Shown: in pieces, positions 5,080 to 44,700 of the stretch
Layout of the letters: each line of letters begins with the position of its first letter
Numbering within the stretch: position 1 is the stretch's first letter
Program-made: the position numbers and the translations under genes
The notes under the pieces: generated by a model
What the model saw: the letters and a program-made list of their open reading frames with translations, nothing else
Told to the model about the DNA's origin: nothing
Databases searched by the model: none
Sequence record: MT884012.2
From: Escherichia phage vb_EcoS_bov11C2
Reading direction: 5' to 3' (one strand)
DNA: 44,700 bases

Positions 5080-5844
5080 TTAGCGCGGAATGCCGCAAAT
5101 CTCGTTAAGTGTCTTCACATCCAGCGCCACTGCCGTGGATTTTGGCTTGTCCGGGTACGGGATGAATTGCTCGACTTCAGGCCATGCCTTAATCAGCTTC
5201 TTGTCAGTATTGTGCAGGTCCAGCACACCGGTAACGGTCAACTTGAATGCGTCATACTTCGCACGCAATTCGCGGCGGGCCTGGTCGTTACGGTCCAGGC
5301 GCTTACAGAAGTCATGGTCCGCAGGGTAATCTGCGCGACCGCGAGGGAGATATATCGGCAGCGCTTTCCCGTCCTCGTCCACTTCGCACACTGACGCGAG
5401 CATAACTGTCTCGAACCCCGGAACGATATCGCCGAGATCAGGCGCGAGCTTATTCATATATTTCTCTTCCCAGTATCCGCGATGTACGCGGTATCGGCGA
5501 CCGTCACCGCTCAAGGACAAGGTGCGAACATTTCCGCCTGCGTTGATTTCGAAAGTGGCGTCGTAAACGCTGCCGATACCTTTCGGGCGGTCGGTGTTAT
5601 AACTATATGTCGCCTTGTTGGTGTATACACAGACGCCGTACATCTGCGACTGGTCGTCGCGAATTGCCTTGATATGCTCGCGGAGCGCTGCGAACGTGCG
5701 AATGCCTTCCGGCATACAGTCCAGCGTTATTGCGTACGCCAGATCGCGTGAGTCCATCATGATTTGTTTGGCTTCGGTTGCGATTTCGTGGTCGCGCAGG
5801 ATGTTAGATAGGATCTGATTTTTAATGTCTTTTGTCAGTCTCAT
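5080..5844 (-). CDS. hypothetical protein, antisense island in head module
   Basis: 254 aa ORF on the opposite strand to all surrounding late genes; no confident family assignment. Confidence 0.6.
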   Translation of the reverse strand: MRLTKDIKNQILSNILRDHEIATEAKQIMMDSRDLAYAITLDCMPEGIRTFAALREHIKAIRDDQSQMYGVCVYTNKATYSYNTDRPKGIGSVYDATFEINAGGNVRTLSLSGDGRRYRVHRGYWEEKYMNKLAPDLGDIVPGFETVMLASVCEVDEDGKALPIYLPRGRADYPADHDFCKRLDRNDQARRELRAKYDAFKLTVTGVLDLHNTDKKLIKAWPEVEQFIPYPDKPKSTAVALDVKTLNEICGIPR

Positions 5845-5883
5845 TTTTGTGTCCTCATTATTGGGGCTTTCGCCCCGATTGGT

Positions 5884-6198
5884 TTAGTTAAATTTGATGT
5901 TGCCGCCGGTTGAGGTTAAGCGAGCACATACAGATTCAACGGCATCGACGCACATGAAATCGTTAAAGGCTTCGACCAGGGCGTTTATGAAAGATGCCGG
6001 AACCAGGCCGCAAGCCGGATTATCGAATGTCGCGGAGTTGACCGCCGCTTTTGCCGCTTCAGAAGCATTCATGCTCTGGCACAGATTCAGCGCTTCCGCG
6101 TTACGCATTGCGTGAAAGGTAAAGGTATTCGCTACGGTAGCTTTATTGAAACGGGCCATTGCGGCGTCTACTGGAGTTGCTACGGTCATGTTAGTCAT
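5884..6198 (-). CDS. hypothetical protein (Ala-rich, about 104 aa)
   Basis: ATG at 6198 with RBS AAGGAAAA 8 nt upstream; alternative ATG 6213; first gene after the minus-strand promoter at 6218-6263. Confidence 0.55.
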   Translation of the reverse strand: MTNMTVATPVDAAMARFNKATVANTFTFHAMRNAEALNLCQSMNASEAAKAAVNSATFDNPACGLVPASFINALVEAFNDFMCVDAVESVCARLTSTGGNIKFN

Positions 6199-6217: not shown

Positions 6218-6263
6218 CTGTTGGTGTGCAACCAATATACTGCAACCAACATCCGCAATGCAA
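6218..6263 (-). promoter_or_regulatory. sigma70-like promoter with ATTGGTTGCA motif pair and operator-like inverted repeat
   Basis: Minus strand reads TTGCAT (-35, 6258-6263), 18-nt spacer, TATATT (-10, 6234-6239), then GGTTGCACACCAACAG; the 22-nt TATATTGGTTGCACACCAACAG is identical to 39900-39921. Confidence 0.5.
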
Positions 6264-11873: not shown

Positions 11874-11877
11874 TGAA

Positions 11878-12190
11878 GCGGGACAAAACGGGATGTCCCG
11901 TTTTGTCCCACCCCACAAATGTGCATATCTAATCACTTCCATTGCATAATCTAAAAGCGGGACAATCGGGACGTCCCGTTTTGTCCCACCCCACAAATGT
12001 GCATACCTATTCGGATTTCGTGCATAAACTAAGCGGGACAAAAAGCGGGACAAACAAGGTGCGGGACAAAGCGGGACAGCACCCCCGTCCCAGCCAGTGC
12101 TGCCGCGGTTTTTAGCCGATCGGGACAGGCGGGACAAACCCCAGTCTTTCAGACTAGACGGGGGTCAATGGCCCCCCTCGTCTGAGACTG
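11878..12190. repeat. GGGACA iteron/palindrome array R1
   Basis: At least 10 GGGACA copies plus inverted copies; 30-bp perfect palindrome at 11880-11909; second imperfect palindrome 11959-11987; 71-bp unit 12021-12091 and 52-bp hairpin unit 12139-12190 each with 1 mismatch to 39549-39716. Confidence 0.85.
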
Positions 12191-12258: not shown

Positions 12259-14901
12259 ATGGCAGATCAAGCAGCAGGCATCACGCTAAAGGTCGATGCC
12301 ACACAAGTCAGAACGGCAAATACGGCGCTGGACTCGTTCGCACAGAAGTCCGAGACTACGGAATGGAAAGCTAAGAAATTAAACGACACACTCGGCAACA
12401 CGAAAAAGGTGACGGGTGACGCCGCGGGCGGAATGGGGAAGCTGGCGAACGAATCGCAGCGCGCCGCCGATGGCATGACGAAACAAGAGCGACTTGCCAA
12501 CCGGTTAGGCATGTCGACCAAAAACCTGGGCTTTGCCTCGCGTAACGCCGCATTCCAGTTACAGGATATTGCGGTAACGCTTGAGATGGGTATGCCTGTT
12601 CACCGCGTCATGCTTCAGCAGTTACCGCAGCTAACTGGGGCGTTCGGTGGACTGGGTAACACGCTGCGTTTTGTTGCGGGCTTCCTCGGCCCAGTGGGGA
12701 TCGGCCTTGCTGCCTTGACGGCAACGTTAGGCGTAGGGGTGGCAATTACGTCCCGCGCAGAAAACCAGGTCGCAGCGCTTAACAAGACGCTGGCGCTGTC
12801 AGGTAACATTTCCGGCCTAACTGCAAACCAGATCCTGGTGCTATCCGAGAACGCCGAGCGCATGGGCGGGTCGTTCCGCAAGACGCGTGACACAATCCAG
12901 GCGCTGGCGGCGGCGGGTGTGAAAGCGGGTGGTGACTTCGGCGCACTGGCGAAGGTAGTGAATGACTTCGCGAAGGTGTCCAGCCAGCCGATCGAGGATG
13001 TGGTCGCGGCGGTGGCTAAGCTGTCTACCGACCCGGTAGGTGGCTTGCGAGCATTGGCGGATAAGTATCACGTCGTAAACGAAGCGCAGATCCAGCAGGT
13101 ACAATCCCTGGTGGATATGGGTCGTGAGACTGAAGCGGTGGCGCTGGCTAATAAAACAGCCGCGGCGTCGTTCACCACCATGACCAACGATATTAAGTCC
13201 AACATGGGAACGCTCGAGCGGTCGATGAACATCGTCACATCGGCAGCGAAATCTATGTGGGATGCAATCCTGGATGTTGGACGCGCGCAGTCCTCGAATG
13301 AGTCCGAGATGAAAGCGCGTGAGTCATTGCAGCGACTGACCACGGCTTACTATGCCGAGATGAAAGCGGTAAACGCTGCCGGTGGGGTGATGACCGAAGC
13401 GCAGAAAGCGCGTATTAACATGCTTTACAGCGAACTGGTAGCCCAGGAAAAAGTAGTGGCGTCGCTAACCCTGCGTAACCGTGCCGAGCGAGACAACGCC
13501 AGCGCCGCGGAACAATCAGCGAAGGCGAACGAGGAGGCCAACCGCACCGCCCGCGACCGCGCCGCGTTCGAGAAGGAGTACGCGACCAACGCGAAGCGGC
13601 GCGCCGACGAGATCGCCCGCCTCAATTTGCTGAATAAGCGCGGCGTGATTGATGAGAAAGAACTTGCCGAGGCGGTGAAGCAGGTCAACGAGCGTTACAA
13701 AGACCCCGCCCCGAAGAAGGCCGCCGCTGTTCGAGTCGATGCAGGGATGAAAATGCTGGAAGTAGCACGGAGCGAACTGGCACAGCTTCGTGAGTCTGGA
13801 AAGCAGATCGAAGCCAACGCATCGACGCAGACCCGCACGCAACGCGCGCAAGCGGCCTTAAACAAGCTGATCGCGGATAATGAGCAGTTAATTGCTGCGA
13901 GCAAAGAAAGAGCGCTAACGGCAGCCGAAAAGCAGCAGATGGTAGAATTCGGACGCGTGAAGGAAGTGCGCGAGCAGATCGTCGAAGAAGCCAAATTGCT
14001 GGACGCGAAAGAGAAGCAGGTCAAGGCGCACGCGCAGATCGACGCCTTCGTTAAGAACCAGAACGCCGAGCTAAAAGCCACCGCGGCGGGCTATGCGCTT
14101 TCCACTCGCGAAGCGGCTAACCTGCGCGAAGAATTGCAGCTAATTGATCGCCTTAAGCGGGTTGGCGCTAGTGATACCGATATTGATCTGGCGGTGTCTA
14201 AGCTGCGCGAAGTGCAGGAAGCACAGACAGGGGCTAACGCCTCGCTATGGGATGGCTTCAGCCGCGGGCTTAAGGATAGCGTGGATGATATGGGTAACGG
14301 ATATACGCAGATGGCGTCACTCACAAAATTCACGTTCGGCGCTATGCAGGACACGATGAACAAGTTTTTCGAGACTGGCAAGCTGAACGCAAAGGATATG
14401 GTTAAATCCATCCTTAGCGAATTAATCAAGCTGGCTACATCGCAGGCATTCAAGTCCATCGTTAGCGCTTTCGGTGGCGACGGCGGCAAAAACGGATTGT
14501 TCGGCGCTATCTTCTCGGGCCTAACTAAGAATGCGGACGGAGGAGCGTACGCAGGGGGCAATCTCGCGGCCTATTCGGGGAAAGTGGTAAGCCAGCCAAC
14601 CTTTTTCAGTTATGGCGTCCAGGCGTTCGCTAAGGGCGCAGGATTGATGGGGGAGGCTGGACCCGAGGCTATCATGCCGCTTAAGCGCGGCCCGGACGGA
14701 AAACTGGGCGTTGCCGCTGCCGGTGTAGGCGGAGGGATGATTGTAACAACCAACGTTAACATGGGGACCGGTAAGACGGATACCAGTGTTAGCGGACCAG
14801 ACCCGCGCACAGCGCAGGCGTTCGGAAAGCAAATCACCGAGTCGGTCAAGGCCGAGATCGTGAAGGCGACGAAACCGGGTGGTGTACTTTACAAACGATG
14901 A
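12259..14901 (+). CDS. tail tape measure protein
   Basis: 880 aa, Ala/Gln/Glu-rich coiled-coil core, Gly-rich hydrophobic C-terminal region, located between the GT chaperone and tail tip genes. Confidence 0.9.
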   Translation: MADQAAGITLKVDATQVRTANTALDSFAQKSETTEWKAKKLNDTLGNTKKVTGDAAGGMGKLANESQRAADGMTKQERLANRLGMSTKNLGFASRNAAFQLQDIAVTLEMGMPVHRVMLQQLPQLTGAFGGLGNTLRFVAGFLGPVGIGLAALTATLGVGVAITSRAENQVAALNKTLALSGNISGLTANQILVLSENAERMGGSFRKTRDTIQALAAAGVKAGGDFGALAKVVNDFAKVSSQPIEDVVAAVAKLSTDPVGGLRALADKYHVVNEAQIQQVQSLVDMGRETEAVALANKTAAASFTTMTNDIKSNMGTLERSMNIVTSAAKSMWDAILDVGRAQSSNESEMKARESLQRLTTAYYAEMKAVNAAGGVMTEAQKARINMLYSELVAQEKVVASLTLRNRAERDNASAAEQSAKANEEANRTARDRAAFEKEYATNAKRRADEIARLNLLNKRGVIDEKELAEAVKQVNERYKDPAPKKAAAVRVDAGMKMLEVARSELAQLRESGKQIEANASTQTRTQRAQAALNKLIADNEQLIAASKERALTAAEKQQMVEFGRVKEVREQIVEEAKLLDAKEKQVKAHAQIDAFVKNQNAELKATAAGYALSTREAANLREELQLIDRLKRVGASDTDIDLAVSKLREVQEAQTGANASLWDGFSRGLKDSVDDMGNGYTQMASLTKFTFGAMQDTMNKFFETGKLNAKDMVKSILSELIKLATSQAFKSIVSAFGGDGGKNGLFGAIFSGLTKNADGGAYAGGNLAAYSGKVVSQPTFFSYGVQAFAKGAGLMGEAGPEAIMPLKRGPDGKLGVAAAGVGGGMIVTTNVNMGTGKTDTSVSGPDPRTAQAFGKQITESVKAEIVKATKPGGVLYKR

Positions 14902-16326: not shown

Positions 16327-17067
16327 ATGCTAACGAAGAAGGTTAAACGCGATATTGCCGCACACGTTGCGGCATGTCTGCCGGAAGAAGCCTGCGGGCT
16401 GGTCGTCATGGTGGGCCGTAAGCAAGTATTCGTCCCGTGCCTGAACGTCTTCGAAGACCCCACCGGCGCGCGCTCTCGAAAAGATGCGTTTACAATTAGT
16501 GATATGGCCTGGATGGATGCCGAGGATATGGGCGACGTTGTGCGCGTAGTACACTCGCACCCAGGTCAGCGCGAGTTAACCCCGTCATTGGGCGACGTTA
16601 ATGGATGCAACGGCAGCGGCGTCGTCTGGACCATCACTAACGAATATGGCGACTTTATCGAGATCGACCCGGAAGACCCGCCGCTGGTAGGCCGCCGATT
16701 TGTTCTCGGGGTTACGGACTGCTACGGCCTCGTCATGGCATGGCATAAAAAGCAGGGCGTAAACCTGCCAGACTTCCGCGTACCGTATAACTGGTGGGAG
16801 ACAGGCGAAAACCTGTATATGGACAATTGGTATGGCGCGGGCTTCCGGGAGTGTGAGGAGAATACGCCGGGGGCAATGGTCATCATGCAGATCAGCGCGC
16901 CAGTGCCAAACCATGCCGGAATCTACCTTCCAGGAAACCAACTACTGCACCATATCTACGGCAGCCTGTCGAGCGTCATTCCCTTCCGGGCAGGATTTTT
17001 CCGGGACAATGTGGTTAAATGGGTACGTCATAAAGACCTACCGGGGAATATCACAGAATGGCAATGA
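16327..17067 (+). CDS. tail assembly protein K-like (JAMM/MPN plus NlpC/P60)
   Basis: HSHPG (JAMM metal-binding motif) followed by a Cys-His papain-like pair (DCYGLV, NHAGIY); 246 aa. Confidence 0.8.
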   Translation: MLTKKVKRDIAAHVAACLPEEACGLVVMVGRKQVFVPCLNVFEDPTGARSRKDAFTISDMAWMDAEDMGDVVRVVHSHPGQRELTPSLGDVNGCNGSGVVWTITNEYGDFIEIDPEDPPLVGRRFVLGVTDCYGLVMAWHKKQGVNLPDFRVPYNWWETGENLYMDNWYGAGFRECEENTPGAMVIMQISAPVPNHAGIYLPGNQLLHHIYGSLSSVIPFRAGFFRDNVVKWVRHKDLPGNITEWQ

Positions 17068-22113: not shown

Positions 22114-22335
22114 TTACCACTCCCGAGATTTAACTGATACCGTACCAGAGAAGTTGCCGTCGCTATCCGCGGACAGGCCGGTGAAGCGCATATCCACATC
22201 TCCGGCAGGCACTTTTTGCCCATCGACGTAGCGCAACATGCAGCTACCGTAAGCTACCGTAATGCAATCGCCGTTGTTACGTTCTACCGCACAGCCGGAC
22301 AGAAGAACCGAACAAATCACAATTAATGTTTTCAT
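22114..22335 (-). CDS. small lipoprotein, candidate superinfection exclusion (Llp/Cor-like)
   Basis: ATG 22335 with RBS GGGAGA; signal peptide MKTLIVICSVLLSGC with lipobox L-S-G-C; mature part about 57 aa. Confidence 0.6.
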   Translation of the reverse strand: MKTLIVICSVLLSGCAVERNNGDCITVAYGSCMLRYVDGQKVPAGDVDMRFTGLSADSDGNFSGTVSVKSREW

Positions 22336-22415
22336 GTTATCATCTCCCATATTTGGTTGAGTTTTAGTATTGCACCGCTCAATCGAGAATGCAACCAATC
22401 TATGAGGATTTAGCT

Positions 22416-24676: not shown

Positions 24677-25198
24677 TTATTTCAGTGCGCTACGTACCAG
24701 TGTTTTTTCCATGTTACGGAAGTCTTCCGGCGTCATAAGGATTTTGGATCCGTCTTCGCCAGTGAGCACGACCATAGGCTGAACGTCCTGGTCTACGACG
24801 CCGAAATTGGCGGCTTTGACTGTCATGCCCACCGATGCCGAAGGATGCCACGTCCCCGAGGTAGCGATGGGCCAACCTTTAAGGCTGTCGTATTGCGCTG
24901 CCGTTGTATCGACCTGAATCTCGTCGTGCACGGTCATGTACGACTCGCCCAGCAGGGCGGAATACGCTACCAGGTCGACGATATTGTCCTCCTGGTGCTT
25001 ACGGTGCTGACGAACCAGCTTCAGGCAGATCAGGAAGGTCCAGGCTTCTTGCTCGGTAAGATCGCGCCCGGTAAGCGCGTTAAACACGGCGGCTACCTGT
25101 TTAGCGCTGCGTTCTTCTTTCGCGTTGTCATAGCCGTTTTCTTTCCCGCGCTGTTCCATAGTGGTAGCGGCGTTTTTGCAGTATTCGTATGCTTTCAT
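24677..25198 (-). CDS. hypothetical protein
   Basis: ATG 25198 with RBS AAAGGA; downstream of the palindromic motif 25251-25272. Confidence 0.5.
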   Translation of the reverse strand: MKAYEYCKNAATTMEQRGKENGYDNAKEERSAKQVAAVFNALTGRDLTEQEAWTFLICLKLVRQHRKHQEDNIVDLVAYSALLGESYMTVHDEIQVDTTAAQYDSLKGWPIATSGTWHPSASVGMTVKAANFGVVDQDVQPMVVLTGEDGSKILMTPEDFRNMEKTLVRSALK

Positions 25199-25260
25199 GA
25201 TGTTTTCCTTTTTAGTGGAGGCGGTATTGCCCCCGACGTGATTAAGATACTGCAACCAAC

Positions 25261-25731
25261 CTATTGGTTGCAAGTAAATTTTGCAACGTTTATTGCGTAA
25301 ATTTTCGGGACTAAATCGCTGCACGCCCGACGAATTGCCGCGATGTTCTTCGGGCAGTCTTCAATGATGACCAGTTCCGATACGTCCGCATAGCAGACCA
25401 TTTTGAACACAGCGTACGCTTTAAACTCTGGCGGCGGGGTGTCGTCCAGCATGTGGCGCATGAACAACCGGCCTCTAGGGAATACTTCCAATTGCTCGGC
25501 TGTGGTGTCCCAGCATTCTCGCTGCCGGTTGGTCAGATACGCGATCTCGAAGCCTTGCTCTTTGTACATGGTCAGCAGCGGCAGCATATCCATGTTCAGA
25601 TCTTCGCGTATATGCGCTTTGTGCCACTTCGCCCAAAAGGTGGATTTTGTTTTTATGCCCGGAACCAGGTCGGCACGCGCATCGCTTGAACCGTTAATAA
25701 CGCCATCCAAATCGCAAATCAGTAATTTCAT
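25261..25731 (-). CDS. HAD-family phosphatase-like protein
   Basis: N-terminal LICDLDGVI (HAD motif I DxDG), RBS GAGGAG; 156 aa. Confidence 0.55.
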   Translation of the reverse strand: MKLLICDLDGVINGSSDARADLVPGIKTKSTFWAKWHKAHIREDLNMDMLPLLTMYKEQGFEIAYLTNRQRECWDTTAEQLEVFPRGRLFMRHMLDDTPPPEFKAYAVFKMVCYADVSELVIIEDCPKNIAAIRRACSDLVPKIYAINVAKFTCNQ

Positions 25732-25952
25732 TTCAACTCCTCGATCAGATTCATACGAACAACACGGGCCGAAAAAGCGTCACACACAAGATGACAACTG
25801 GCGGTCATTACAAGCCAGCCGGTAAGGTGCATGCCAAGCAATTGCTCCGGGCGACTGACCCGCCGCACTTTGTTCTCCCTCGGGTTAATTTGGTAGCGTT
25901 TAACAATTTCGTCCACGACGCGCATACTGCGGTCAACGACTAAGATATTCAT
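25728..25952 (-). CDS. hypothetical protein
   Basis: ATG 25952 in frame with track ORF 25728..25961; overlaps the Dam gene end by about 20 nt. Confidence 0.35.
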   Translation of the reverse strand: MNILVVDRSMRVVDEIVKRYQINPRENKVRRVSRPEQLLGMHLTGWLVMTASCHLVCDAFSARVVRMNLIEELK

Positions 25953-26418
25953 GTAGCTCACTCTCGCTCATTATTTCAATTTGTGCGCTGCCGATGGGTG
26001 GCGCTTCGTCAAAGATTATCAATTGCTGGCACTTGTTATTGCTCGGACCGACTTCGCCGGTGACAGCGTGAATGAATCTAATCCGCCAGTCCAGAAGAAT
26101 TATCAGGTTTGCAGTCTTCCGGGCAAGCCTCGCCCACTTCGTCGACGTGTCCTGATTCAGTAGCATGACAGTCCGGCGACCGTGCGCTGCGCATTCCACC
26201 CACGGCAGCGGGTCGGAATACGGCGGATTGCACCACTTCCACCCTTTCAACTCGGACCAGTCCACATCAAGCGCGCTGTGTTCCGCCGTGAAGTAACGCG
26301 GTAGCAGATGGTTTGCATCGCTTGCCGCCATATCGTAACGGAATCGGTACTTCCGACGAAGCGGTTTAAATAAAGCTGGCGGCGTGCGCCAGCTATCTTT
26401 TTGCTCACTCTTCTGCAT
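25933..26418 (-). CDS. DNA N6-adenine methyltransferase (phage Dam-like)
   Basis: WRTPPALF ... DMAASDANHL ... WCNPPYSD (NPPY catalytic motif); 161 aa, size typical of small phage Dam-type enzymes. Confidence 0.7.
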   Translation of the reverse strand: MQKSEQKDSWRTPPALFKPLRRKYRFRYDMAASDANHLLPRYFTAEHSALDVDWSELKGWKWCNPPYSDPLPWVECAAHGRRTVMLLNQDTSTKWARLARKTANLIILLDWRIRFIHAVTGEVGPSNNKCQQLIIFDEAPPIGSAQIEIMSESELHEYLSR

Positions 26419-27106: not shown

Positions 27107-27125
27107 CGTGTTGTCTCCAGGTATT

Positions 27126-27151
27126 AAAAAGGGCGTCCAAACCGGACACCC
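27126..27151 (-). terminator. intrinsic terminator overlapping a promoter
   Basis: Minus strand forms an 8-bp stem (one G-U) then UUUUU; lies directly downstream of -10 TATATT (27154-27159) and -35 TTGCAT (27177-27182), which sit in a TGCAACCAAT pair (27161-27170, 27178-27187). Confidence 0.5.
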
Positions 27152-27187
27152 TCAATATAATGCAACCAATATTATTATGCAACCAAT

Positions 27188-30064: not shown

Positions 30065-30104
30065 CTCTAAAATCCTCGATATGGCTAACCGGCACACTAT
30101 ACCG

Positions 30105-30383
30105 CTATGCGACCAATTCAGCAACCAATAAATCGCAGTCGGATATGTTGTCGATAACGCGAACGTCAGCACCGCGGCGGGCCATTCGCTCATGTTCACG
30201 TACCTGGTGCGGCTTCGGTTTTCCTCCGGGGCGCTTCACTTCGACGAACACTATTTTGCCGTTGATGATAATAATCAGGTCGGGCGCACCCGCGCGCCCC
30301 TCCCATGCCAGTTTTCGGCAGAATCCGCCGACCTCTTTCACCCGTTTCATCAGGTGACTTTGAATCTTGCCTTCCGGTGTCAT
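30105..30383 (-). CDS. VRR-NUC-like nuclease
   Basis: ATG 30383 overlapping the polymerase stop; GAPDLIIIINGKIVFVEVKRPGG ... Q pattern (PD ... E-V-K). Confidence 0.55.
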   Translation of the reverse strand: MTPEGKIQSHLMKRVKEVGGFCRKLAWEGRAGAPDLIIIINGKIVFVEVKRPGGKPKPHQVREHERMARRGADVRVIDNISDCDLLVAELVA

Positions 30384-33682: not shown

Positions 33683-33772
33683 TTTCCAATTCCTCATTTT
33701 CACATGTATCGGGGTTATTGGAAGCCACCCCGTTCGGCTTGGTTGCCAATTTACTTGGTTGCGCCTGAGCGG

Positions 33773-34015
33773 TCAAGCATTTTCATTAAAAAGATTTCTG
33801 GTCACGTAGTTGGTCGCGTTCTCGATCCAGCTTAACGGCGGGCGGTTGATGTTCTTCTCCACCCAATCGACGGCAGCTTCGCTATAGCCGTCATCCAGCC
33901 AGCGGGTCGGATGTCGAATCATCCACGCCACCATTAACACGCCTTGCACGCAATGCAGGATAAAGCCCAGCGCGCCGAGCAAAAACATCAATAAGATTGC
34001 GAATACTTTATTCAT
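33773..34015 (-). CDS. small membrane protein
   Basis: N-terminal TM helix AILLMFLLGALGFIL; 80 aa; overlaps the exonuclease stop. Confidence 0.45.
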   Translation of the reverse strand: MNKVFAILLMFLLGALGFILHCVQGVLMVAWMIRHPTRWLDDGYSEAAVDWVEKNINRPPLSWIENATNYVTRNLFNENA

Positions 34016-35926: not shown

Positions 35927-36445
35927 TTAATCTTCCAGTTCGAAATAGGTTTCGACGATTTCTTTTAACTCTGTGTGGAAGTCTTCGACGTCGTCATCTT
36001 CCAGCTTGGCGATTGATTTGATCTCGAACGATTCCAGCAGGTCGTCGAATTCGTCGTTCGCGTCGTCGTCATCACCCCCGGCAATAATAGCGGCATACTG
36101 TTTGATCTCGTCGCGCATCTCTGCCAGCGGATCGGCATCTTTCTTACCTTTGCCTTTCGCCGGGGCTTTTTTACCCTTCGCAGGTTTTTCGTCTTCGGCT
36201 TCTTCATCGTCGTCATCTTCTACGACTTCTTTTTTGGACTTACCTTTCGCCGGGGCTTTTTTAGATTTAGCCGGTTTTTCGTCTTCGGCTTCATCGTCGC
36301 CATCTTCGACAACTTCTTTTTTCGCCTTAGACGGCTTCTTGTCTTCCTGTTTACCAACGGCAGCGCCAACGGTTTCATAATGCTTTGCAATGGTTTCCAG
36401 TGCTACTACGCCGCGAGTGATCAGGTTTACGATTTGCTCAAACAT
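35927..36445 (-). CDS. highly charged tandem-repeat protein, first gene of the leftward early operon
   Basis: ATG 36445 with RBS GGAG; two 29-aa tandem repeats (KKEVVEDGDDEAEDEKPAKSKKAPAKGKS) and acidic C-terminus. Confidence 0.5.
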   Translation of the reverse strand: MFEQIVNLITRGVVALETIAKHYETVGAAVGKQEDKKPSKAKKEVVEDGDDEAEDEKPAKSKKAPAKGKSKKEVVEDDDDEEAEDEKPAKGKKAPAKGKGKKDADPLAEMRDEIKQYAAIIAGGDDDDANDEFDDLLESFEIKSIAKLEDDDVEDFHTELKEIVETYFELED

Positions 36446-36641
36446 GGTATATCTCCGATTGGTTAAGTTTAGGTGTCGGCAGTTAACTTCGTCGGTGGCC
36501 TTAACATATTGCCAGGTTACGCGTTCTCCCGTTCGGGTAGTGGACCTGGTTATATAATCACGGTTGGGAATCCTGACACTTCGATCCGGCCCCTGCGTTG
36601 CCCCTCTCCAGTTTGCGTCCTGCATCCTGTCGACGGGGTGA

Positions 36642-36671
36642 ATAATAGATTGGTTGCAGGATGGGTGTCAA
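36642..36671 (-). promoter_or_regulatory. strong sigma70-like early-left promoter
   Basis: Minus strand TTGACA (36666-36671), 18-nt spacer containing TGCAACCAAT, TATTAT (36642-36647); about 190-nt leader to ATG 36445. Confidence 0.55.
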
Positions 36672-36788: not shown

Positions 36789-36834
36789 TTGACACCGTGC
36801 AGTTTTGGGTGTAGTTTCGTTGGTCATTAACCAA
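36789..36834 (+). promoter_or_regulatory. early-right promoter with inverted repeat at the start site
   Basis: TTGACA (36789-36794), 17-nt spacer, TAGTTT (36812-36817), then TTGGTcattaACCAA (36820-36834) before RBS GAGGG and ATG 36849. Confidence 0.45.
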
Positions 36835-36848
36835 CTGAGGGCAGAGCA

Positions 36849-37178
36849 ATGAATGTAAACGACGCAATCGAAATGTTAACGAAGACTGTTTGCAGTGAGA
36901 CAAGCCGGTCATGGGCATACACCGATGCCGTAGGGGCTGTGTTATTTGAAATCGAACGACTGCGCAGTATCGAAAAAGAATTGCGCGCCAGGCTGGAACT
37001 ACTCAACGGTACAGCAGCAAGCAAGCTGCAAAAACACAATGAAGAAATGGAAGAATACAAAAAGCAGGTTATCCGTTTGCGCGCCGAGGGCAAATCCTGG
37101 GCGATGATTGCTGAGTTGACCGGAATTAATCAGAGCACAGTTCGCTCCTGGGTACGCAATAATAAAACTTCTAAGTAA
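36849..37178 (+). CDS. HTH DNA-binding protein, candidate early regulator
   Basis: C-terminal helix-turn-helix SWAMIAELTGINQSTVRSWVRN; first gene of the rightward operon. Confidence 0.55.
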   Translation: MNVNDAIEMLTKTVCSETSRSWAYTDAVGAVLFEIERLRSIEKELRARLELLNGTAASKLQKHNEEMEEYKKQVIRLRAEGKSWAMIAELTGINQSTVRSWVRNNKTSK

Positions 37179-37188
37179 GGCCGCGGCA

Positions 37189-39453
37189 ATGAGCTTAATT
37201 AAATTCGCTGTAACAAAACCCGCTAAAAAAGGCGAAAAAGCCAGGGCGGAAAACTTCCAGATGACGACCGATGAGTTTTTCGAATTTATCAAAGATGCGA
37301 AAGAAATATCCTCGGTGCATATCAACAAGACGGAAGATAAAGCCGAGTATGCGCGCCGCAAGCGTAAGGCCGATGGCATCGTGGCGTATACCAGTGACGG
37401 ATTGCGTCGTAAGACCAGTGCGGTGGACCGCTCGATCCTGTTCTTTGATATTGACCGCACCGACACCCGCACCCTGCGCCGCTGCCGTAAGGCGTTCATC
37501 GACGCGGGTCTGGAACACGTATTTCACACCACCACCGGCGACCGCCACCCGCTGAAGGGCGGCACGCGTTGCGCCCGTTTCCTGGTGCTCACTGACAAGC
37601 CTGTACCGGCTGAAGACCTGGGCCGCGTACAATATGCACTATTACACCAACTGGGTCTGTCAGATGTGGACTTCGACGATTGCACGAAAGACACAAACCG
37701 CCTGATGTACCTGCCACACCAGCAGTCTGTTATTAAGTGCCACTATGGCAAGCGCGCCAATGTGCGTCGTCTACTCCGTCGGGCGGACAAGCTGGGGGTG
37801 GAAAAAGAGGAAGTACGCCGCGAGCTTACCCAGGGCGACGACGCAGTGGCAGACGGCATTCTGGACTGGTGCTTCCAGGCCGGATTCGAGGAGTTATCTT
37901 CTGGTCGTGGTTATGAAGTGCCGTGTCCTAACGAACATCTGCACAGCGGCGAAGGGTCGACGGCTATCATGGTCAAGGATGGTGAGATCCGTTTCAAGTG
38001 TATGCACACTGGCAACGAGTGTTGCTCGGAACTGAACAGACACCAGCACCTGGCGCTACGTCTTATCGGGATCCCGGACCACCTGAACGTCGAACCGCAC
38101 AACATGTCACGTAAGCAAATCGCCGCCATCCTCCCAGGACTGGACGACGAGGAAGTGGAATCATGCTATGCGCATATCGTTGATGCGGTCGGAGACGGCG
38201 ACGAGTACGGCGTATGTACCGACGCTGACCTGGATAACGAACCGGTCGCACTGTTCAGTAAGCACGACCCTATCATCGAGGGGTTGATTAACTTTAAATC
38301 GACCTGGTATATGGCTGGCGAGTCTAACATCGGTAAATCGTTCTACGTGCTGGGCCAAATGGGCGCTGTTGCCGCGGGTATTCCGTTCGGCGGTGCGAAG
38401 GTCGTCCAGTCTCATTGCTTCTATTTCGACGCGGAAGGTGGCGAAGCCTCCAACCAGCGTAAGGAAGCATTGCAGATCAAATATGAGCACGACCTGGACA
38501 AGCTGCACATTATCGATCTGCAATCACGCGGCTGGGATATCACCAGCAAGTCCGGCTTGCGTGAAGTTATCAGCTTCATCAACCGCACCGCTAACGGCGA
38601 ACCGGTTGGCCTGGTGGCGTTCGACTCACTCAACCAGACGGTTGCGTTGCGGTCCGCCGATGCCAAACCGTTCGACGAGAACAACGCCAGCGATATGGGC
38701 GAAGTGGTCAAAGCGCTGAAGGCCATCGCGGAAAATACAGGCGGCAGCGCGGGCGTCATCCACCACCCGGCGAAGGGTGCAAACGGCAGCAGATCTCCCC
38801 GTGGGTCCGGTGCGCTGCATGGTGCTGTCGATTCTGCGTTCTTCCTGGAGCAACCAGACGACAACCAGCCCGGACAACTGAACCTGTATCACGAGAAGGC
38901 ACGTAACGGCATCAAGCAAGCGCCGCGCGGCTTCGTCCTGCTCAAGTGCAAGGTGAAGGTGGATCTCCGCAAGTCCGAGGCGTTCGAGGCACACCAGTCC
39001 ACCAGCACAGGGCCGGACTTCGGCGATGTAGTTGCCGGTTGGGACGTCAAGCCAATTGCATCCACGCCACGCGACGAGACTCTTTACCTCGTACCGGTCG
39101 CCCTGGCACCGTTCGCCATCGAACAGGCGAAGGCCGCGGGCAAGGCCGCAGTTAAGGAGGAGAACGCCGCAGGACCGCGCAACGAAAAAGAGAAAGTGCT
39201 TTATGCGGCACTGGAAAAACTGATGGAAGATAACCCGGACCATACCGGATTCAGTAAATCGGCAATTGTACGCCAGGCGGGATTGGCAAAAGGCGGCACA
39301 TCGACGAAGGCAATCGACGATATGGTCGAGCGCGGCGTGCTCGGTTTTTATACAGATCCGCACACCGGGGCCATCTATGGGTCGTCAAATATCGTCATCA
39401 AAACGAATATACCCATCACGCTTTCGGCGACCGATGACGACCTGAAAGATTAA
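37189..39453 (+). CDS. primase-helicase (AEP-type primase-polymerase N-domain fused to RecA/DnaB-like ATPase)
   Basis: N-terminal hydrophobic DxD motif LFFDIDRTD; central Walker A GESNIGKS and Walker B VGLVAFDSLNQ; 754 aa. Confidence 0.7.
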   Translation: MSLIKFAVTKPAKKGEKARAENFQMTTDEFFEFIKDAKEISSVHINKTEDKAEYARRKRKADGIVAYTSDGLRRKTSAVDRSILFFDIDRTDTRTLRRCRKAFIDAGLEHVFHTTTGDRHPLKGGTRCARFLVLTDKPVPAEDLGRVQYALLHQLGLSDVDFDDCTKDTNRLMYLPHQQSVIKCHYGKRANVRRLLRRADKLGVEKEEVRRELTQGDDAVADGILDWCFQAGFEELSSGRGYEVPCPNEHLHSGEGSTAIMVKDGEIRFKCMHTGNECCSELNRHQHLALRLIGIPDHLNVEPHNMSRKQIAAILPGLDDEEVESCYAHIVDAVGDGDEYGVCTDADLDNEPVALFSKHDPIIEGLINFKSTWYMAGESNIGKSFYVLGQMGAVAAGIPFGGAKVVQSHCFYFDAEGGEASNQRKEALQIKYEHDLDKLHIIDLQSRGWDITSKSGLREVISFINRTANGEPVGLVAFDSLNQTVALRSADAKPFDENNASDMGEVVKALKAIAENTGGSAGVIHHPAKGANGSRSPRGSGALHGAVDSAFFLEQPDDNQPGQLNLYHEKARNGIKQAPRGFVLLKCKVKVDLRKSEAFEAHQSTSTGPDFGDVVAGWDVKPIASTPRDETLYLVPVALAPFAIEQAKAAGKAAVKEENAAGPRNEKEKVLYAALEKLMEDNPDHTGFSKSAIVRQAGLAKGGTSTKAIDDMVERGVLGFYTDPHTGAIYGSSNIVIKTNIPITLSATDDDLKD

Positions 39454-39548
39454 AATTTGCGCGCATTGGTTGCCGTTTTAAGTGTTTTTATCTGGTCGTA
39501 TTGGTTGCCGTGTAGTGTAGATATAATGAATAGTTATGCATTGAAACT

Positions 39549-39716
39549 GCATAAACTAAGCGGGACAAAAAGCGGGACAAACAAGGGGCGGGACAAAGCG
39601 GGACAGCACCCCCGTCCCGCCCCGGATGACGCGGCTTCCAGAGGAGCGGGACAGCGGGACAGCACCCCAGTCTTTCAGACTAGACGGGGGTCAACGGCCC
39701 CCCTCGTCTGAGACTG
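39549..39716. repeat. GGGACA iteron array R2 (copy of R1 units)
   Basis: 70-bp unit 39549-39618 and 52-bp hairpin unit 39665-39716 each differ by 1 nt from R1; six GGGACA copies. Confidence 0.85.
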
Positions 39717-39876
39717 AATAAAATCCGGGGATTGCAAAACACACGGCAGCATGATGCGAAGTGCGGTCGCGGATGAACTAGGCAACCAATGCTAGTAGCA
39801 TTATGCTGAGTGAAAAATGCGGTTTGCAGTTGCAGCAGATAGCGATCAACTTTTTCATGCGCGTGATTAATATTGG

Positions 39877-39921
39877 TTGCATCCGCCCAGGCACCCTGCT
39901 ATATTGGTTGCACACCAACAG
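39877..39921 (+). promoter_or_regulatory. sigma70-like promoter with ATTGGTTGCA pair and operator-like inverted repeat
   Basis: TTGCAT (39877-39882), 17-nt spacer, TATATT (39900-39905), TTGGTTGCACACCAA at the predicted start, then RBS AGGAGG and ATG 39933. Confidence 0.5.
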
Positions 39922-40444: not shown

Positions 40445-40714
40445 ATGAGCCGTAGACGAGCCAAACAGCTTTCGTGGCATATTCCCCTGCATTGCATACG
40501 AATATGGGCTAAGAATGCGACTGAGGGCGATTCTGTATTATGGTGTTATCGCGATGACGTTAAGCCGTTAACGCAGACTCGCTACTTGCACCAGTTCGCA
40601 GCACAACACGATTTCAGGGTGCGGACTTCCTTGCAACCAATGGGAATACGTATTACATTACGCCGAAAGCCAGCCATTGAGCGGGTAGGCAAACACTGGA
40701 GACTGAGCAAATGA
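40445..40714 (+). CDS. hypothetical protein
   Basis: 89 aa ORF in the early-right operon series. Confidence 0.45.
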   Translation: MSRRRAKQLSWHIPLHCIRIWAKNATEGDSVLWCYRDDVKPLTQTRYLHQFAAQHDFRVRTSLQPMGIRITLRRKPAIERVGKHWRLSK

Positions 40715-43076: not shown

Positions 43077-43101
43077 AAGCCCGGTTAATTCCGGGCTTTT
43101 T
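43077..43101 (+). terminator. intrinsic terminator after lysis cassette
   Basis: AAGCCCGG-ttaatt-CCGGGCTT followed by TTTT. Confidence 0.7.
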
Positions 43102-43307
43102 ATTGCTTGACTCGCAACCAACACAGGGGCCATACTGCAACCAATCAACTGGAGGAGTAATCAAGATGGCACGTAAAGATATTTGGGTATTAGCGATCTG
43201 GACCACCGCGGCTTTTATCGGCATGGTTATTTGCGAATTGATATAGCCCGCCGCCATACGGACCGTGGTATATTGTCCACGGTCCACTAATCAGGAATTA
43301 ATTAAAT

Positions 43308-44666: not shown

Positions 44667-44692
44667 AGCCTGCCGATTTGGTGGGCTTTTTT
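44667..44692 (+). terminator. putative intrinsic terminator
   Basis: G-U-containing 9-bp stem with 3-nt loop then T6. Confidence 0.4.
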
Positions 44693-44700
44693 GTGCCTGT

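Follow-up and report, generated by a model that had tools for sequence, protein, structure and literature searches.

The question raised by this locus is why a lytic coliphage should carry one 22-bp element, TATATTGGTTGCACACCAACAG, unchanged at two distant promoters, and what kind of factor might read it. The stretch of DNA analyzed here (the window, 44,700 bases, record MT884012.2, Escherichia phage vb_EcoS_bov11C2) is a complete Dhillonvirus genome, co-linear with MT884013.2. The genus is described as lytic (PMC8594841), and neither the annotation nor Pfam scans of the window contained an integrase or CI-like gene. Dhillonviruses are among the commonest coliphage isolates, are represented in the BASEL collection and are used in both defence-system and therapy work; in the literature searched we found no account of how they time transcription, nor any description of their promoters or of the sequence discussed below. 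A preliminary description of the window had interpreted the 22-mer, together with TTGGT-N5-ACCAA inverted repeats at three start sites, as the operators of a Cro-like repressor, the helix-turn-helix (HTH) protein encoded at 36849-37178. Our analysis points to a different interpretation. The 22-mer would represent the -10 to +10 core of two copies of a single promoter type, with a 10-bp box, ATTGGTTGCA, as its active unit, and this box is probably an undescribed genome-wide control signal that is read by something other than the proposed HTH protein.

The sequence identities that gave rise to the question are exact. The 22-mer is found at 6218-6239 on the minus strand (site A) and 39900-39921 on the plus strand (site B), with no further match at up to three mismatches in the window and none in 100 shuffles. 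The two copies have unrelated flanks, so their identity does not reflect a recent long duplication. Likewise, TTGGT-N5-ACCAA occurs exactly at 6221-6235, 36820-36834 and 39904-39918 and nowhere else, against about 0.04 occurrences predicted by chance in 44.7 kb for an exact palindrome with ten specified bases. Spacings from N0 to N12 other than N5 gave no exact match in the window, and N3, N4 and N5 gave none with a single mismatch. As reported, TTGCAT precedes TATATT by 18 nt at site A and 17 nt at site B, and the third repeat lies at PR, the promoter of the HTH gene, where it starts 2 nt past the -10; at A and B it overlaps the last two -10 bases. The original observation of the 22-mer and its repeat is correct and non-random. 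All start sites in this work are predicted from promoter hexamers, and it should be noted that TTGCAT matches TTGACA at only three of six positions, a weak -35 that explains why sites A and B fail a simple sigma-70 scan. These two sites (TTGCAT/TATATT) match at 8/12 positions and PR (TTGACA/TAGTTT) at 9/12, with 3/6 in its -10, placing all three below the scan threshold, while PL (11/12) and promoter H (9/12) pass. The total number of scan matches in the window is not above that in shuffles.

A closer comparison of the two sites reveals the smaller unit that they share. The 22-mer consists of TAT, the box and CACCAACAG, and the inverted repeat is formed by the TTGGT of the box pairing with an ACCAA downstream. 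The box itself is a ten-base asymmetric sequence with the core TTGGTTGC, and is the most over-represented 10-mer of the genome, with 17 occurrences at up to one mismatch against 3.3 expected. The core is present in 19 copies compared with 2.0 expected, a count reached in none of 100 shuffles. Sixteen of these copies fall in the 7.5% of the DNA that is non-coding (binomial P = 7e-16), and two of the other three lie within the final codons of a gene, immediately before the promoter that follows. The single clearly intragenic box keeps its position in each of the five Dhillonvirus genomes compared. Altogether, boxes are located on approximately 11 promoter regions and in an origin-like region that follows the helicase-primase gene. 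The presence of 19 core boxes in both orientations, at -35, spacer and +1 positions, is not the layout of a simple Cro circuit with three operators. The part of that proposal that stands is that the repeats overlap core promoters and predicted starts, and an operator-like layout is plausible.

The boxes take several placements relative to promoter elements. At B1, C1, D1 and E (positions in Table 1) the forward box also provides the -35, with its TTGCA(T) exactly 17 nt before a TATAnT-type -10, and a second forward box is located either in the spacer (C2, D2) or across the -10 and +1 (B2). Promoters A and F have a separate -35 (TTGCAT or TTGCAA) and a forward box abutting the -10, with box A2 additionally spanning -10/+1. 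The consensus-like promoters PL, J and H carry reverse boxes, in the spacer beside the -10 or just after it. When 67 boxes from four genomes were pooled, TAnnnT showed a peak exactly 17 nt after TTGCNN (eight boxes, against a background of about 1.2) and a second at 0 nt (five boxes). The 17-nt phasing supports the identification of these sites as real promoters. An RNA-level explanation is disfavored by the lack of Rfam or tRNA matches and by the location of the boxes, most of which precede the predicted start or occur on either strand. A sigma-54 reading (TGGCAC-N5-TTGCA) was rejected by inspection, as the box pairs do not show the required GG-to-GC distance.

The same phasing could be explained with no dedicated factor at all, if the box were simply the preferred extended -35 of sigma-70 promoters and the additional copies were duplication remnants or overlapping promoters. 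Eight boxes from three genera place TTGCA(T/A) exactly 17 nt before TATAnT, TGCA is self-complementary, so that reverse boxes can also supply TTGCA (as at site F), and the 22-mer behaves as a portable promoter core in front of variable cargo genes. However, the five bases upstream of the hexamer, ATTGG, are as conserved as TTGCA, and to our knowledge match no known sigma-70 or UP-element contact. Furthermore, no correctly spaced -10 accompanies the boxes that lie in spacers, at +1, reversed inside consensus promoters or in promoter-free clusters, and TTGCAT is in any case a poor -35. We consider this account distinctly improbable.

Comparison between genomes shows that the boxes and repeats are under purifying selection. 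ATTGGTTGCA is the top 10-mer in each of the five Dhillonvirus genomes, with HK578, CHD5UKE2, Gluttony and JL1 each containing 16-18 sites at orthologous positions. Of the 22-mer, the inner 18-mer, ATTGGTTGCACACCAACA, is invariant at both sites in all five genomes; in JL1, box A1 and the TATATT of site A are lost and ATTGGTTGCACACCAACA is kept. In alignments of 12 intergenic regions, comprising 5-17 distinct sequences, 13% of columns vary in box cores compared with 37% elsewhere in intergenic DNA (Fisher P = 2.5e-10), and the boxes stand out as invariant words within variable spacers. Locus L022 provides a further case: its early control region is non-homologous, yet it has two reverse boxes in the PL spacer and one reverse 10-mer just after the PR -10, where the window has TTGGTcattaACCAA. 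The box and the PR palindrome therefore hold equivalent positions.

The box is also found outside the genus. We reached outgroup phages through the helicase-primase (43-49% identity), which belongs to a replication module common to them. Of the 23 core boxes in Edwardsiella phage eiAU-183, 17 are intergenic (P = 8e-13), as are 10 of the 13 in Klebsiella phage VLCpiS11a (P = 2e-9); Serratia phage Tsm2 contains 12 against 1.7 expected, and Salmonella phage Shemara has one. A homologous, promoter B-like architecture is present in eiAU-183, which carries TTGGTTGCAt-17-TATAGTTGGTTGCAaggacGCAACCAggag with boxes at the -35 and over -10/+1, plus an inverted box, and VLCpiS11a contains TTGGTTGCAA-17-TATAGT twice. 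The rules of box placement, at the -35 and over -10/+1, are the same in both phages as in the window. A tblastn search with the HTH protein against these four phages produced no match even at E = 10, and the first rightward gene in the outgroups encodes a 69-78 aa Cro/XRE-type protein. The protein put forward as regulator does possess a real C-terminal HTH, but the box is present in phages without a homologue of it. These sequence comparisons argue for a box reader that is shared with the eiAU-like and Klebsiella phages, or with their hosts, as opposed to a protein found only in Dhillonvirus. A broader search of viral contigs with the pattern TTGGTTGC-N1-30-TTGGTTGC proved too unspecific, returning at least 120 unrelated contigs, with giant-virus repeats among the matches.

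We propose that the box acts as a cis-regulatory word: nearly all early or middle promoters carry it on their core, and the origin-like region contains it as well. In our favored explanation, held with evenly balanced confidence, a single sequence-specific DNA-binding factor would recognize the box and either compete or cooperate with the RNA polymerase of the host. At promoters whose -35 is supplied by the box (TTGCAT, 17 nt before TATAnT), such a factor and sigma-70 would use the same DNA. A second box in the spacer or over -10/+1, or the head-to-head arrangement TTGGT-N5-ACCAA, would then enable the bound factor to block polymerase. As a result, the early and middle genes would be turned down, or timed, in concert, with the structural promoter, which has no box, remaining active. 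The box family, its positions on promoters, its registers, its conservation and its occurrence outside the genus are direct observations; protein binding, repression through that binding and this temporal logic are what we infer.

Several points weigh against this proposal. We found no binding, start-site or expression data on the box in the literature searched. The presence of the box on every early promoter, including that of the lysis genes, is awkward for a pure repressor. Moreover, 54 of the 67 pooled boxes fit neither the -35 nor the -10-abutting register, and the spacing of paired boxes is irregular (9 to 35 bp) and their orientation variable, so no single protein geometry is implied. 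In phyletic profiling no candidate protein sorts with the box except for a Dam-family methyltransferase. Finally, eiAU-183 and Tsm2 contain origin-like clusters of boxes, which suggest a role in replication instead of, or besides, transcription.

Table 1. Positions of promoters, boxes and associated features in the window.
Feature	Position	Strand	Details
22-mer copy A	6218-6239	-	TATATT 6239-6234; box A2 ATTGGTTGCA 6236-6227; repeat TTGGTtgcacACCAA 6235-6221
Box A1 GTTGGTTGCA	6250-6241	-	within 18-nt spacer, abutting -10; element 6241-6263
Site A -35-like TTGCAT	6263-6258	-	18-nt spacer to TATATT
Genes downstream of promoter A	5884-6198 and 5080-5844 (Nmad5)	-	variable cargo
Promoter B	39872-39921	+	TTGCAT 39877-39882 as -35-like; 17-nt spacer; TATATT 39900-39905
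Promoter B boxes	B1 39872-39881; B2 39903-39912	+	repeat 39904-39918; ATG 39933
PR	36789-36834	+	TTGACA 36789-36794; 17-nt spacer; TAGTTT 36812-36817; ATG 36849
PR inverted repeat TTGGTcattaACCAA	36820-36834	+	after -10
HTH protein	36849-37178	+	109 aa; long helix and C-terminal HTH
PL	36642-36671	-	TTGACA; 18-nt spacer; TATTAT (11/12)
PL reverse box	36649-36658	+	in spacer, 1 nt from -10
Promoter J, upstream of SSB gene	33739-33776	-	TTGACC; 17-nt spacer; TAAATT
Promoter J reverse boxes	33755-33762; 33739-33746		in spacer; just after -10
Promoter D	30096-30129	-	TTGCTG 30124-30119 as -35; 17-nt spacer; TATAGT 30101-30096
Promoter D boxes	D1 30129-30120; D2 30117-30108	-	D2 in spacer
Promoter C	27154-27187	-	TTGCAT 27182-27177 as -35; 17-nt spacer; TATATT 27159-27154
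Promoter C boxes	C1 27187-27178; C2 27170-27161	-	C2 in spacer
Inverted box pair TGCAACCAATagGTTGGTTGCA on promoter F	25251-25272		TTGCAA; 18-nt spacer; TATCTT; gene start 25189
Box E	22390-22399	-	TTGCAT as -35-like, 17 nt before TGcAATACT
Promoter H	43107-43145	+	after terminator 43077-43098; TTGACT, 18-nt spacer, CATACT (43107-43136)
Promoter H reverse boxes	43114-43121; 43136-43145		in spacer; over -10/+1; open reading frame 43166-43249 next
Origin-like region B	39465-39790		subtype GCATTGGTTGCC boxes 39465-39474 (+), 39500-39509 (+), 39781-39790 (-)
Intragenic box	40632-40641	-	antisense in gene 40445-40714; only clearly intragenic box

The HTH protein itself does not resemble Cro. Its Pfam matches are to HTH_23 (2e-7), HTH_28 and Sigma70_r4_2 (2e-6), whereas HTH_3 scored 17.6 bits, under the 23-bit cutoff, which places the protein outside the Cro/CI (XRE) fold family to which it had been likened. 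NCBIfam returned weak matches to ECF-sigma region 4, and PHROGs labels the protein 'transposase'. The AlphaFold model (pLDDT 85) contains a 59-residue helix followed by the HTH, an arrangement that is compatible with a dimer, and when it was compared with the PDB by Foldseek, the only matches were to generic LuxR/GerE/resolvase HTH domains, with E above 0.6. The family is very small, and its members occur only on contigs of Dhillonvirus size; its alleles vary in the N-terminal half, and the recognition helix TGINxSTVRxW is invariant in all of them. No other recognizable sequence-specific DNA-binding domain emerged from the Pfam scans, which included 33 further open reading frames (ORFs), and the HTH protein is thus a candidate by elimination only. 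A distant relative (locus L024) was uninformative as a comparison, as it belongs to an unrelated, AT-rich phage without the box.

A Cro-like circuit would require this protein to bind TTGGT-N5-ACCAA as a dimer at PR, A and B, resulting in the joint shut-off of the three promoters. The repeat does indeed occur three times, with N5 spacing only and each time spanning a predicted start, and at PR both repeat and spacer are kept, despite variable neighboring bases, in 14 loci with 109-aa alleles, with one arm mismatch in one further locus. The long helix, the invariant recognition helix and the restriction of both the family and the N5 repeat to Dhillonvirus point in the same direction. Conversely, HK578 and CHD5UKE2 retain the 22-mer with its repeats at A and B, all the boxes and the same recognition helix, yet their PR (TTGACA-17-TAGTAT) is followed by unrelated sequence with neither repeat nor box, and locus L022 has its single reverse box there instead. 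In addition, the spacer of the A and B repeats, TGCA(C), is conserved as part of the box, which a spacer-blind dimer leaves unexplained; the homologous promoter of eiAU-183, a phage without the HTH protein, has +1 boxes; and the fold matches are to generic HTH domains only. Like the HTH family, the N5 palindrome and the GCGGGACA(A) iterons (13-19 copies, compared with 0-4 in the outgroups) are found only in Dhillonvirus; the target of the protein could therefore equally well be either one, the palindrome or the iterons beside its operon. The GCGGGACAA (GCGGGACAAA) iterons adjoining the HTH gene are an equally good candidate target. On balance a Cro-like role is unlikely, and at most the HTH protein may read the palindromic form specific to Dhillonvirus.

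These iterons belong to a second repeat family in the window, (A)AGCGGGACAAA, located at 11876-12138, at 39558-39607 and also at about 39640-39672. Seven copies lie upstream of the tape-measure gene, some with reverse-strand partners that form palindromes, and four to six copies follow directly after the helicase-primase gene. The two clusters correspond to the 'region A' and 'region B' repeats flagged in the SO-1 GenBank record, and may represent an origin/crr-like pair as well as an alternative target for the HTH protein.

The clusters of boxes seen in the outgroups raise the possibility that the replication initiator, either the helicase-primase or a partner, recognizes the box as its iteron, which would be re-used at promoters, in the manner of iteron plasmids and DnaA regulons, for autoregulation and for coupling replication-gene expression to initiator level. 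In eiAU-183, nine boxes are found within approximately 770 bp at the helicase-primase stop, and five more upstream of the tape-measure gene, the equivalent of SO-1 region A. In Tsm2, the 3' end of the helicase-primase gene contains four copies distributed over two reading frames, which indicates selection at the DNA level. In the window, the three boxes of region B flank the GCGGGACA(A) iterons at 39558-39607, and in Shemara-like phages the variant TTGGCTGC is found in the vicinity of the corresponding region, with two copies of TTGGTTGT directly following the -10 of their own PR. A palindrome of part of the box is located at the promoter of the window's helicase-primase operon, and most box-bearing operons encode replication proteins. 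Against this, alignment of the C-terminal winged-helix-like region of the helicase-primase revealed no signature that sorts with box status, and regions A and B of Dhillonvirus use a different iteron, GCGGGACAA. Exact 17-nt phasing to a -10 is the property of a promoter, not of an origin, and boxes also occur upstream of lysis, lipoprotein and cargo genes. An iteron function for the box is, in our view, doubtful.

A more ambitious form of this idea would make TTGGTTGC an ancient cross-genus control word of small virulent Enterobacterales siphoviruses (Dhillonvirus, Eiauvirus and the Klebsiella/Serratia Guernseyvirinae-like phages), serving as both origin iteron and core-promoter operator for one conserved factor, which would most plausibly be the complex that initiates replication. 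We advance this tentatively and think it unlikely. If it were true, these strictly lytic phages would control replication initiation and early/middle transcription through one common feedback loop.

Some of the sequence around region B can be followed outside Dhillonvirus. The stretches concerned are 39510-39557 in the window, 38195-38233 and 38463-38540 in Shemara (locus L146) and 12706-12731 in locus L165. A box or box-variant combined with GAATAG(TTATGCA) is present in all three. Likewise, ACACCAACAG(A)GGAG is found just before the first gene after region B in both the window and Shemara, and in the latter it forms CTG-N10-CAG, a LexA-box-like pattern. These are examples of parts of region B and promoter B that are older than the genus.

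Phyletic profiling of all proteins of the window against box-positive and box-negative relatives showed that a small methyltransferase and two structural proteins sort with the box. The former, a Dam-family N6-adenine methyltransferase (25933-26418, minus strand, PF05869), is present in Dhillonvirus, eiAU-183, VLCpiS11a and Tsm2 and absent from box-negative Shemara, and is the only non-structural protein found in all box-positive genomes. The box contains TGCA and no GATC, and the co-occurrence is probably a matter of shared ancestry, that is, phylogenetic hitch-hiking.

Alternatively, the box might be read by a host factor, for example the FadR-subfamily GntR regulator PdhR, in which case transcription of the phage would be linked to the physiology of its host. 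Although their proteins share only about 45-65% identity, phages of Escherichia, Klebsiella, Edwardsiella and Serratia have the same 8-bp core, a pattern that a conserved host protein would easily explain. PdhR is a pyruvate sensor whose box is AATTGGTnnnACCAATT (PMC7660256), and the half-site ATTGGT is identical to the first six bases of ours. However, the window contains no N3-spaced site ATTGGT-N3-ACCAAT (core GGTnnnACC) at up to one mismatch, only N5 spacing, and PdhR and its GntR relatives were rejected as the reader on these grounds. Most boxes are also lone half-sites followed by a conserved TGCA that PdhR does not require, and the variants TTGGCTGC and TTGGTTGT in Salmonella phages better fit a co-evolving phage factor. 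A host reader of this kind is therefore very improbable. In order of decreasing confidence, we rank the alternatives to a dedicated box-binding factor as the initiator iteron, the Cro-like HTH circuit, the extended -35 and the GntR-type host regulator.

The proposed box-binding factor has partial counterparts in well-studied systems. The operators of P1 C1 are short asymmetric sites, within a 13-17 bp range together with those of L5, that occur many times per genome and are mostly intergenic or at promoters. In mycobacteriophage L5, the gp71 'stoperators' are likewise dispersed, multi-copy asymmetric sites (PMC11447400). Our 10-bp box resembles both in its many asymmetric sites, its enrichment in intergenic and promoter DNA and the pairing of some copies into imperfect palindromes, and in these systems one factor serves many operons. 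It differs in that P1 C1 and L5 gp71 are the immunity repressors of temperate phages, whereas the window belongs to a virulent phage without an integrase or CI-type gene, and in that the box also supplies a -35 in fixed register and occurs in origin-like clusters.

The nearest published analogue is a 21-nt dispersed direct repeat, aaATAGCACnnnTTGnTAAAA, of coliphage TLS (Drexlerviridae), a PHIRE-type intergenic sequence with about 20 copies for which stoperator, enhancer and UP-element roles have been proposed (PMC11447400). It too is an uncharacterized dispersed repeat in a small virulent siphovirus, one related to Dhillonvirus. However, the TLS repeat differs in sequence and length and is described only as a direct repeat, while the box is found in forward and reverse orientation, over the -35, the spacer and +1, and in more than one genus.

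The resemblance to lambda Cro/CI lies in the palindromes over promoter cores, one of them at a small HTH gene that opens the rightward early operon, beside a divergent leftward promoter. It breaks down at the HTH protein, which is of HTH_23/sigma-70 region-4 type, at the ratio of three palindromes to 19 boxes and at the autoregulatory site, which is missing in HK578-type phages; moreover, relatives with a true Cro/XRE gene at this position carry the box elsewhere. In iteron plasmids, Rep monomers bind the iterons and Rep dimers an inverted repeat at the rep promoter. As in these plasmids and in the alpha ori/crr system of phage P4, repeat clusters lie by the initiator gene with a second, distant cluster (regions A and B), and a palindrome of part of the repeat is found at the initiator-operon promoter; in contrast, the boxes of the window are mostly at promoters, and the clustered iteron is another word, GCGGGACAA. 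Middle promoters of T4 also have a phage word, the MotA box, in place of a good -35 at a fixed distance from a strong -10, although the MotA box is centered at -30 in one register only, whereas the TTGCA of our box occupies the normal -35 position. No MotA- or AsiA-like protein was seen in the window, where most of the small early ORFs scanned have no recognized Pfam family.

Since it marks nearly all early and middle promoters, the box supplies a promoter map for the genus, and its ten base pairs provide a handle for finding the regulator. The 22-mer core, already placed before variable cargo genes in nature, offers a compact and portable promoter/operator cassette. The interest of the box lies in the fact that it spans genera and may couple origin and promoter control. 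It is unchanged in phages of four host genera in which the first early regulator gene has been swapped, which raises the question of whether its reader is a conserved phage replication protein or a host factor.

The operon structure of the genome is as follows. Rightward structural genes extend from about 56 to 21118, and the leftward replication operon runs from about 36625 down to 24059. The rightward early operon begins with the HTH gene at 36849, followed by the helicase-primase, and a second rightward operon from 39933 includes the lysis genes. Box E stands upstream of a lipoprotein (Cor-like) gene (22114-22335), and the box is absent from the structural (late) operon. A terminator hairpin at 44667-44687 is followed by TGtTATAAT, a perfect extended -10 that reaches across the record ends (44667-44700 joined to 1-6), and the junction is found as contiguous, conserved sequence in HK578, CHD5UKE2, Gluttony and JL1. 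Located upstream of the small terminase gene, TGtTATAAT is likely to be the box-free promoter of the structural operon.

Within the head-gene block, the region behind promoter A (5080-6198, minus strand) is a variable cargo slot. In the window it encodes a 104-aa protein and an Nmad5 protein (Pfam 2e-60), in SO-1 a DNA polymerase III beta-like 'moron' and in HK578 another gene, while promoter A and the 40 nt upstream of it are invariant despite the changing cargo. Strong hairpins lie immediately downstream of promoters C (27125-27152) and F (25210-25237), both on the minus strand. The former consists of GGGTGTCCggtttGGACGCCC followed by TTTTT (-17 kcal/mol), is terminator-like and is situated approximately 5-30 nt after the predicted start. 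It may end upstream transcripts while stabilizing, or attenuating, the new one.

The first gene of the leftward operon (35927-36445, minus strand) encodes a highly acidic protein that contains lysine-rich KKAPAKGK repeats and has a short conserved helix at its N terminus. The protein is kept in all relatives examined, at 30-60% identity, and might mimic DNA or bind the nucleoid or polymerase. This gene is annotated as 35927-36625, but its start at 36445 is indicated by a PHROG match that begins at residue 61 of the long ORF, leaving a 180-nt leader that CHD5UKE2 does not have. Similarly, the annotated gene 24677-25255 overlaps box F and has a better start at ATG 25189, with a Shine-Dalgarno sequence; both are likely annotation issues. 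Directly after promoter H, an unannotated ORF of 27 codons (43166-43249, plus strand; MARKDIWVLAIWTTAAFIGMVICELI) has a good Shine-Dalgarno sequence and is annotated in CHD5UKE2 as a small hypothetical protein; its product is probably a membrane peptide. Finally, words of the GCTGCCGT and CGCTGCCGTTG type are strongly over-represented genome-wide within coding regions (e.g. at 16608, 23314, 24896, 29755 and 36355): GCTGCCGT occurs 29 times, counting both strands, where base composition predicts about 1.9. The same bias is seen in Tsm2 and Shemara, and could reflect codon or oligonucleotide bias, or a Chi-like signal.

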